Source: Escherichia coli (GTDB lineage: Bacteria > Pseudomonadota > Gammaproteobacteria > Enterobacterales > Enterobacteriaceae). From it: a stretch of DNA of 64,000 nucleotides. Position 1 is the stretch's first letter. Each line of letters starts with the position of its first letter. Positions 46,253 to 46,393 of the stretch are shown here, one piece after another. The notes below the pieces were generated by a model. It saw only the letters and a program-made list of their open reading frames with translations, made no database searches and was not told where the DNA came from. The stretch lies in assembly GCF_024700885.2 (NCBI RefSeq), contig NZ_CP117016.1; one strand, given 5' to 3'. Made by a program: the position numbers and the translations under genes.

Positions 46253-46275
46253 TTAATTTTTTCAAAACGCGCATA

Positions 46276-46299
46276 CAAAAAAAGCCTCCACTGGGAGGC
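46276..46299 (-). terminator. pheST attenuator terminator
   Basis: On the minus strand: gcctcccagtggaggc hairpin followed by ttttttt, between leader peptide and pheS. Confidence 0.6.
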
Positions 46300-46348
46300 T
46301 TTCAGGCGCTGTTTTCCGTTTCTCTTCTCACGCGCTAGCCTCCTGGAG

Positions 46349-46393
46349 TCAGGTGCTAAAGTAAAAAAAGAAGCGGAAAATAGCAGCATTCAT
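46349..46393 (-). CDS. pheM: pheST leader peptide ([14 protein letters not shown])
   Basis: 14-codon ORF with 5 Phe codons, read from the minus strand. Confidence 0.75.

Follow-up and report, generated by a model that had tools for sequence, protein, structure and literature searches.

The element on the minus strand between rplT and pheS of the window (the whole 64-kb stretch of Escherichia coli DNA that was analysed) is almost certainly the E. coli pheM leader, a ribosome-mediated transcription attenuator of the trp type which sets expression of pheST by the supply of charged tRNA-Phe. The pheM attenuator is already known (b1715, RF01859) and ordinary, and nothing in the element is new. As a textbook-class attenuator that every E. 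coli genome in RefSeq has annotated and that is contained in Rfam it has little discovery value; it serves as a positive control, in which a real regulatory element was recognised from the sequence letters alone and its position and mechanism were given correctly. The survey reported below adds a small descriptive point, namely that leader, terminator and predicted switch are near-invariant across seven families of Enterobacterales.

Leader ORF, annotation and neighbouring genes

The leader ORF was read from the minus strand (46393-46349) as ATG AAT GCT GCT ATT TTC CGC TTC TTT TTT TAC TTT AGC ACC TGA. It is a short translatable ORF of 14 codons with an ATG start, an SD-like AAGGT and clustered cognate codons; its five Phe codons (TTC at 46378 and 46372; TTT at 46369, 46366 and 46360) lie within seven consecutive codons (codons 6-12), which confirms the 14-codon ORF with five Phe codons described in an earlier note on this DNA. 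The leader and the genes under its control were located as follows.

46432..46460, minus strand: candidate sigma-70 promoter of the pheM-pheST transcript (read from the sequence and from conserved blocks)
46404..46408, minus strand: Shine-Dalgarno-like AAGGT 5' of the pheM ATG (AAGGTAAC-GCAAGC-ATG, kept in nearly all aligned Enterobacterales leaders)
46349..46393, minus strand: pheM leader ORF, 14 codons plus stop (sequence; RefSeq pheM annotation)
46275..46399, minus strand: match to Rfam RF01859 (Phe_leader), model positions 1-125 of 125
45227..46210, minus strand: pheS (327 aa), first regulated structural gene (NCBIfam TIGR00468, 401.6 bits)
42825..45212, minus strand: pheT (795 aa), second regulated gene (TIGR00472, 1008.8 bits)

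The Phe-rich pheM ORF is more than chance. When all six frames of the 64-kb window were searched for ATG-started ORFs of at most 30 codons with at least four Phe in eight codons, pheM was the only one found, and 100 dinucleotide-preserving shuffles yielded on average 0.02 ORFs with at least five Phe and 0.53 with at least four Phe per window. Upstream, a -35 box TTGACT (46460-46455) and a -10 box TTCAAT (46437-46432) are separated by a 17-nt spacer, and TTGAC(A/T) and TTTCAATA blocks are kept at this place in most loci of Enterobacteriaceae and Erwiniaceae; to judge from the sequence, this is likely the pheM-pheST promoter. The candidate (46432..46460) was not reported by a simple promoter scan because its -10 box is without A at position 2.

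Identity was established with Rfam, genome matches and annotation. RF01859, whose gathering score is 55, scored 74.4 bits with E = 9.2e-11 for the 64-kb window as a whole, and no other Rfam family in the window rose above its own gathering score; matches to mir-5444, Dicty Class I RNA and sX9 (E around 0.1, far under their gathering scores) were set aside as chance. Of 5,426 complete E. coli genomes, 5,425 contained a match to a 411-nt region round the feature (5,423 at ≥99% identity), and the best matches were 100% identical. RefSeq features under the match were rplT, 'pheM: pheST operon leader peptide PheM', 'Phe leader region' and pheS, and the local gene order was thrS-infC-rpmI-rplT-pheM-pheS-pheT-ihfA, with flanking ORFs scoring as equivalogs of pheS, pheT, rplT and ihfA (himA). 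In K-12 MG1655, pheM is b1715 ('pheST-ihfA operon leader peptide'); the element analysed here is its orthologue by position between rplT and pheS and by an identical leader peptide. When E. coli was searched by sensitive blastn (E ≤ 10) for another copy resembling pheL, the pheM site alone matched, at one place per genome.

Several observations concern the adjoining genes. The true start of pheS is ATG 46210 (RefSeq), and the mechanical ORF list gives 331 aa from an in-frame ATG at 46222, which overlaps the pheS Shine-Dalgarno sequence GAGGA. Immediately 5' of this GAGGA lies a 6-bp hairpin (GTGTCA-CCAC-TGACAC, 46224-46239, minus strand); both the hairpin and ATG 46222 are shared with K-12. 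The start codon of infC is an unusual AUU (47756-47758, minus strand), 3 nt past the thrS stop codon (47764-47762), and the ORF list shows merely a truncated 144-aa GTG ORF for infC because of this start; the AUU start is a known feature of IF3 autoregulation. Downstream of rplT, a terminator hairpin at 46485-46505 (minus strand) reads AGAGGGAG-CTAGT-CTCCCTCT, followed by TTTTCGTTT, and GGGAGC...GCTCCCTCTTTT after rplT is kept across Enterobacterales; this terminator was missed by a simple terminator scan.

Alternative RNA structures and the predicted switch

The 131-nt leader was folded and compared with shuffled sequences. Its minimum free energy (MFE) was -56.7 kcal/mol versus -34.2 ± 3.5 for the shuffles (z = -6.4; none of 200 shuffles folded as well), and the MFE structure of the free leader consisted of a long 1:2 stem, a small tip hairpin and the terminator 3:4. 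The elements of the two alternative folds were the following.

46361..46384, minus strand: segment 1, 5' strand of the 1:2 stem, overlapping codons 4-11 and thus four of the five Phe codons (MFE fold)
46335..46359, minus strand: tip hairpin of the 1:2 stem, UUAGC.CCUG-ACUC-CAGG..GCUAG (MFE fold)
46308..46331, minus strand: segment 2, 3' strand of the protector stem, GUGAGAAGAGAA.CGGAAAA.AGC (MFE fold and alignment)
46294..46343, minus strand: antiterminator 2:3, -16.2 kcal/mol, occupying the terminator 5' arm (constrained folds)
46277..46303, minus strand: intrinsic terminator 3:4, -14.5 kcal/mol (terminator scan and folds)

In the protector stem, 46384-46361 pairs with 46331-46308 in a duplex of ~22 bp, and the tip hairpin, which spans the pheM stop codon, sequesters GGAGGCUAG (46343-46335) when no ribosome is stalled. 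In the antiterminator, GGAGGCUAG.GCGU (46343-46330) pairs instead with GCGCCU...AGCCUCC (46309-46294), of which AGCCUCC occupies 46300-46294. The terminator hairpin GAAAGCCTCC-CAGT-GGAGGCTTTT (46303-46280) has 10 pairs, five of them G-C; its stem joins 46303-46294 to 46289-46280 across the loop CAGU, and the 3' arm runs into U7, there being exactly seven T at 46283-46277. The earlier note had placed a hairpin with a seven-T run at 46276-46299 before pheS: both are real and lie 66 nt 5' of the pheS ATG (46210) in this strain, and the range given was slightly too short, trimming ~4 nt of the 5' arm, a trivial error. Helices 1:2, 2:3 and 3:4 share strands and are therefore mutually exclusive in silico, with the protector lying over the regulatory codons.

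Dependence on the ribosome was analysed with kinetic-window folds, in which the RNA was folded as it stands before segment 4 emerges and a ribosome footprint, assumed to extend from -18 to +12 nt round the A-site codon, was masked. The probability that the core of the terminator 5' arm (GCCUCC, 46299-46294) is paired was 0.90-0.998 with the ribosome on any of the five Phe codons and ~0.2 for the free RNA or with the ribosome at the stop codon. Equilibrium folding of the complete leader under the same kind of ribosome mask was discarded, as it cannot show the switch: the terminator was kept in every state (P 0.89-0.998). Because the terminator wins at equilibrium in every ribosome state, as an attenuator under kinetic control should show, the predicted switch is kinetic; the model depends on the assumed footprint. 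When mask folding was repeated on each of 48 orthologous leaders, the median probability of segment 3 being paired was 0.24 for the free RNA, 0.97 with a stalled ribosome and 0.23 with the ribosome at the stop codon; the stalled value exceeded 0.8 in 47 of 48 orthologues, and all three conditions held in 39 of 48. The alternative terminator/antiterminator folds for which the earlier note had proposed a check are thus present as mutually exclusive hairpins, governed in these folds by the position of the ribosome, and together with the RefSeq pheM annotation, the RF01859 match and the conservation of the alternative helices they bear out its reading of the element as a Phe-sensing pheM attenuator.

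One orthologue departs in its reading frame. In the leader of Morganella psychrotolerans, situated ~170-210 nt 5' of pheS, the T-run of the ORF is longer by one T; this shifts the frame, the peptide becomes MNTLVSFRFFFLL, and a TAG within CTTTAG ends it sooner than the leader peptides of other species. With the ribosome at this early stop, the antiterminator is left unblocked in the footprint model (P of segment 3 paired = 1.0), which suggests that basal read-through would be higher in this species.

On the favoured explanation, attenuation by the supply of charged tRNA-Phe, transcription would begin 5' of pheM, probably at the TTGACT/TTCAAT promoter (46460-46432) and with some read-through of the rplT terminator. 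With ample Phe-tRNA-Phe the ribosome would reach the UGA (46351-46349), where its footprint would cover GGAGGC (46343-46338), or alternatively would dissociate, upon which the 1:2 stem and the tip hairpin would re-form; either way segment 3 (AGCCUCC, 46300-46294) would be free to pair with segment 4 (GGAGGCU, 46289-46283), and once 3:4 had formed RNA polymerase would terminate at the U7 tract. With scarce Phe-tRNA-Phe the ribosome would stall on one of the five Phe codons in segment 1 and block 1:2, and GGAGGCUAG/GCGU would pair with GCGCCU/AGCCUCC before segment 4 is transcribed; with the antiterminator formed there would be no terminator, and the polymerase would enter pheS-pheT(-ihfA). Cleavage of the long stem by RNase III would add a layer of turnover. 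This account draws on the literature or on inference for where transcription starts, for the polymerase pause, for the RNase III layer and for how pheST responds in vivo to Phe-tRNA-Phe. None of the findings contradicted it.

The founding papers on pheST attenuation are reportedly those of Fayat, Springer, Mayaux and colleagues from 1983-85, and mutation of the pheM start codon or of the Phe codons is described in the older literature as altering read-through into pheST. Regulation of pheM by attenuation, including its regulation in vivo, is documented by Trudel et al. 1984 as cited in PMC5371410; pheMST is described as attenuation-controlled in PMC9291695 and PMC3831192, the latter of which used a pheM attenuator reporter, and RNA polymerase pauses in pheM with a half-life of ~25 s in vitro, a pause that is not stimulated by NusA (PMC9291695).

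Of the other explanations, the one that survives best takes the 1:2 duplex to be mainly a site of RNase III processing or decay that determines the stability of pheST mRNA, rather than part of a sensor of tRNA charging. RNase III indeed cuts within the pheM attenuator structure in vitro, the downstream message decays faster in the wild type than in an rnc mutant (PMC5371410), and the ~22 bp of the duplex fit such a role. The authors of PMC5371410 nevertheless treat cleavage as turnover of attenuator RNA, and as an extra layer it leaves the five conserved Phe codons, the antiterminator and the terminator with its U-tract unexplained; that RNase III processing should be the main function is very improbable.

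Distribution and conservation among pheS loci

For the survey, pheS loci were retrieved with a degenerate DNA pattern for the PheS motif VRV(E/Q)YLGKKG from one genome per species, which gave 120 loci chosen blind to the leader. An ATG ORF with the core FRFFFYFS together with a terminator was found 5' of pheS in 49 of 51 Enterobacterales loci; for the two exceptions (L042 and L065) just 222 and 135 nt of upstream sequence were covered. The leader-bearing loci belong to seven families (Enterobacteriaceae, Erwiniaceae, Yersiniaceae, Pectobacteriaceae, Hafniaceae, Morganellaceae and Budviciaceae). The N-terminal residues of the leader peptide vary across Enterobacterales while the core FRFFFYFS stays, one locus (L006) reading FRFSFYFSA. 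A T run of at least five followed 63-74 nt past the leader stop codon in 47 of the 49 leaders, the exceptions being a Tatumella locus without a run and a Mixta locus in which the distance from stop codon to run was not assigned. In sampled Yersinia, Photorhabdus, Morganella and Rosenbergiella the Rfam Phe_leader scored 59.8-75.3 bits.

At four loci (L021, L031, L037 and L056, belonging to Enterobacter sp. BIGb0383, two Rosenbergiella species and Pseudescherichia vulneris) the leader is directly abutted by the rplT terminator, and the TTGAC(A/T)-17-TTCAAT block that most other genera have is absent. Transcription of their leaders may depend wholly on read-through from the rplT operon, or may start at some other promoter.

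The non-Enterobacterales loci numbered 69, of which three were left out as no pheS start could be placed; a leader of the pheM type was found in none of the remaining 66. Thus no pheM-type leader was seen 5' of pheS in the sampled Vibrionales, Oceanospirillales, Pseudomonadales and Alteromonadales, and the Rfam scan 5' of pheS was blank in the sampled Vibrio, Aliivibrio, Stutzerimonas, Marinobacter, Psychrosphaera, Rheinheimera, Marinomonas and Methylophaga. Phe-containing ORFs 5' of pheS in some Vibrio and in Marinobacterium (3-4 Phe, GTG or TTG starts, mostly without a T-run) were rejected as chance or unrelated. Two of the Vibrio loci, from Vibrio sp. J1-1 and V. profundi, carry a short GTG ORF ~100 nt 5' of pheS, coding for similar peptides rich in Phe and Leu (MLFLFNNLFFS and MFLVNNLFF), without a downstream T-run; the likeness of these two ORFs probably reflects relatedness and not an attenuator. 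Elsewhere in the pheS locus of Megasphaera lornae (L083), a raiA RNA was detected at 4304-4508 (182.7 bits).

Conservation of pairing was measured on 48 distinct leaders, aligned with MAFFT without regard to structure. In the terminated state (1:2, tip hairpin and 3:4) 90.4% of cells could pair, compared with 40-62% when the 3' partners were slid by 1-3 columns, and for the antiterminator 2:3 the value was 91.7% compared with 38-55% for slid controls (48 species), whereby the tested structures, being derived from the E. coli sequence, are favoured over the slid controls. By helix, pairing across the 48 species was 93.3% in the 1:2 stem helix, 85.3% in the tip hairpin and 95% in the terminator; GCCUCC/GGAGGC was near-invariant and the terminator was kept in all 48 aligned leaders. 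The clearest covariation was found between columns 31 and 93 in the 1:2 stem (C-G in 13 sequences, U-A in 13 and unpaired in 22). Shuffle controls were as good as the terminated state in 0 of 500 cases by percentage paired, 1 of 500 by both-side changes and 7 of 500 by covariation score, so that the terminated state clearly beats the shuffles on some measures only. For the antiterminator no measure of covariation in the 48-leader alignment stood above the shuffle control, and only the conservation of pairing relative to slid controls is informative. Covariation is thin because the columns of the leader hardly vary, which would be expected of a sequence that has to code and also satisfy two pairings; conservation reaches synonymous positions and non-coding strands, as pairing constraints would predict.

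These data bear on a further explanation, by which the hairpin and T-run do no more than terminate constitutively, or insulate, downstream of the rplT operon, and the Phe-rich ORF arose by chance and senses nothing. The region does carry plain terminators, with a separate terminator-like hairpin after rplT (46505-46485), and the 3:4 hairpin is always favoured at equilibrium. However, with that upstream hairpin the rplT operon has a terminator of its own; shuffled windows contain on average 0.02 short ORFs so rich in Phe; the SD-like AAGGT and the ATG are conserved, as is the FRFFFYFS core behind a variable N-terminus in 49 of 51 Enterobacterales loci; and a conserved, ribosome-position-dependent alternative pairing takes the terminator 5' arm. 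A plain terminator is accordingly hardly credible. Equally so is an action in trans of the PheM peptide as a micropeptide or of the terminated leader RNA as a small RNA, for although the peptide core is strongly conserved and bioRxiv 10.1101/864512 proposes action in trans for another leader peptide, no supporting evidence was found, synonymous positions and non-coding strands are conserved too, as RNA pairing predicts, and the element always lies beside pheS, with no second E. coli copy by blastn.

Comparison with K-12 and other attenuators

Attenuation through pheM was compared with the corresponding locus of K-12 (L122, MG1655 1798800-1799700). The leader ORF is identical in nucleotide sequence to K-12 pheM (b1715), the gene order is shared and RF01859 matches over its full length. 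Within the attenuator the sole difference is at 46348, in a hairpin loop, where the present sequence has C and K-12 has A; upstream of the SD, 46417 is A here and G in K-12. The distance from attenuator to pheS ATG differs: it is just 66 nt in the present strain because a 145-nt imperfect palindrome, which K-12 has between the attenuator T-run and pheS, is absent at ~46256-46257 (minus strand).

The 145-nt element has a terminal stem of ~17 bp (AGCCUGUCUCAUCAGG / CCUGAUGGGAUAGGCU) and an MFE of -55.7 kcal/mol. Megablast matched it in 4,782 of 5,426 complete E. coli genomes at 90-100% identity, nearly always in one copy per genome (median 1, highest 2); by its presence and its range of identity it is therefore far more variable than the leader. 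It had no Rfam match, and the attenuator-pheS spacers of other genera contained no convincing homologue, one weak 21-nt match being found. The element may be a decayed MITE or ERIC-like sequence and may resemble ERIC/IRU repeats. It is conceivable, if unlikely, that the palindrome alters how stable read-through pheST mRNA is or how it is translated, for instance as a nuclease entry site; if so, the set-point of pheST expression would depend on whether a strain carries the palindrome.

Beyond K-12, pheM has its logic in common with trpL, hisL, leuL, thrL, ilvL and the pheL of pheA, all of which have a short leader ORF with clustered cognate codons. The attenuators of the trpL class and pheM are likewise alike in their 1:2, 2:3 and 3:4 hairpins and in an intrinsic terminator before the structural genes. 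They differ in what they control, the trpL-class leaders acting on biosynthetic operons and pheM on an aminoacyl-tRNA synthetase operon, and blastn (E ≤ 10) matched the pheM nucleotide sequence to no further E. coli site such as pheL. The T-box (RF00230), the functional counterpart in Firmicutes, also lies 5' of pheS, as in Halobacillus halophilus, where one was found directly 5' of the gene (L062, 7614-7837, 95.7 bits); no T-box was detected in the window at the gathering threshold, nor in 45900-46800 at E ≤ 1. The two systems share antitermination when tRNA-Phe is uncharged and differ in how charging is read: the T-box binds uncharged tRNA directly, without a leader peptide or a ribosome, whereas pheM uses both.
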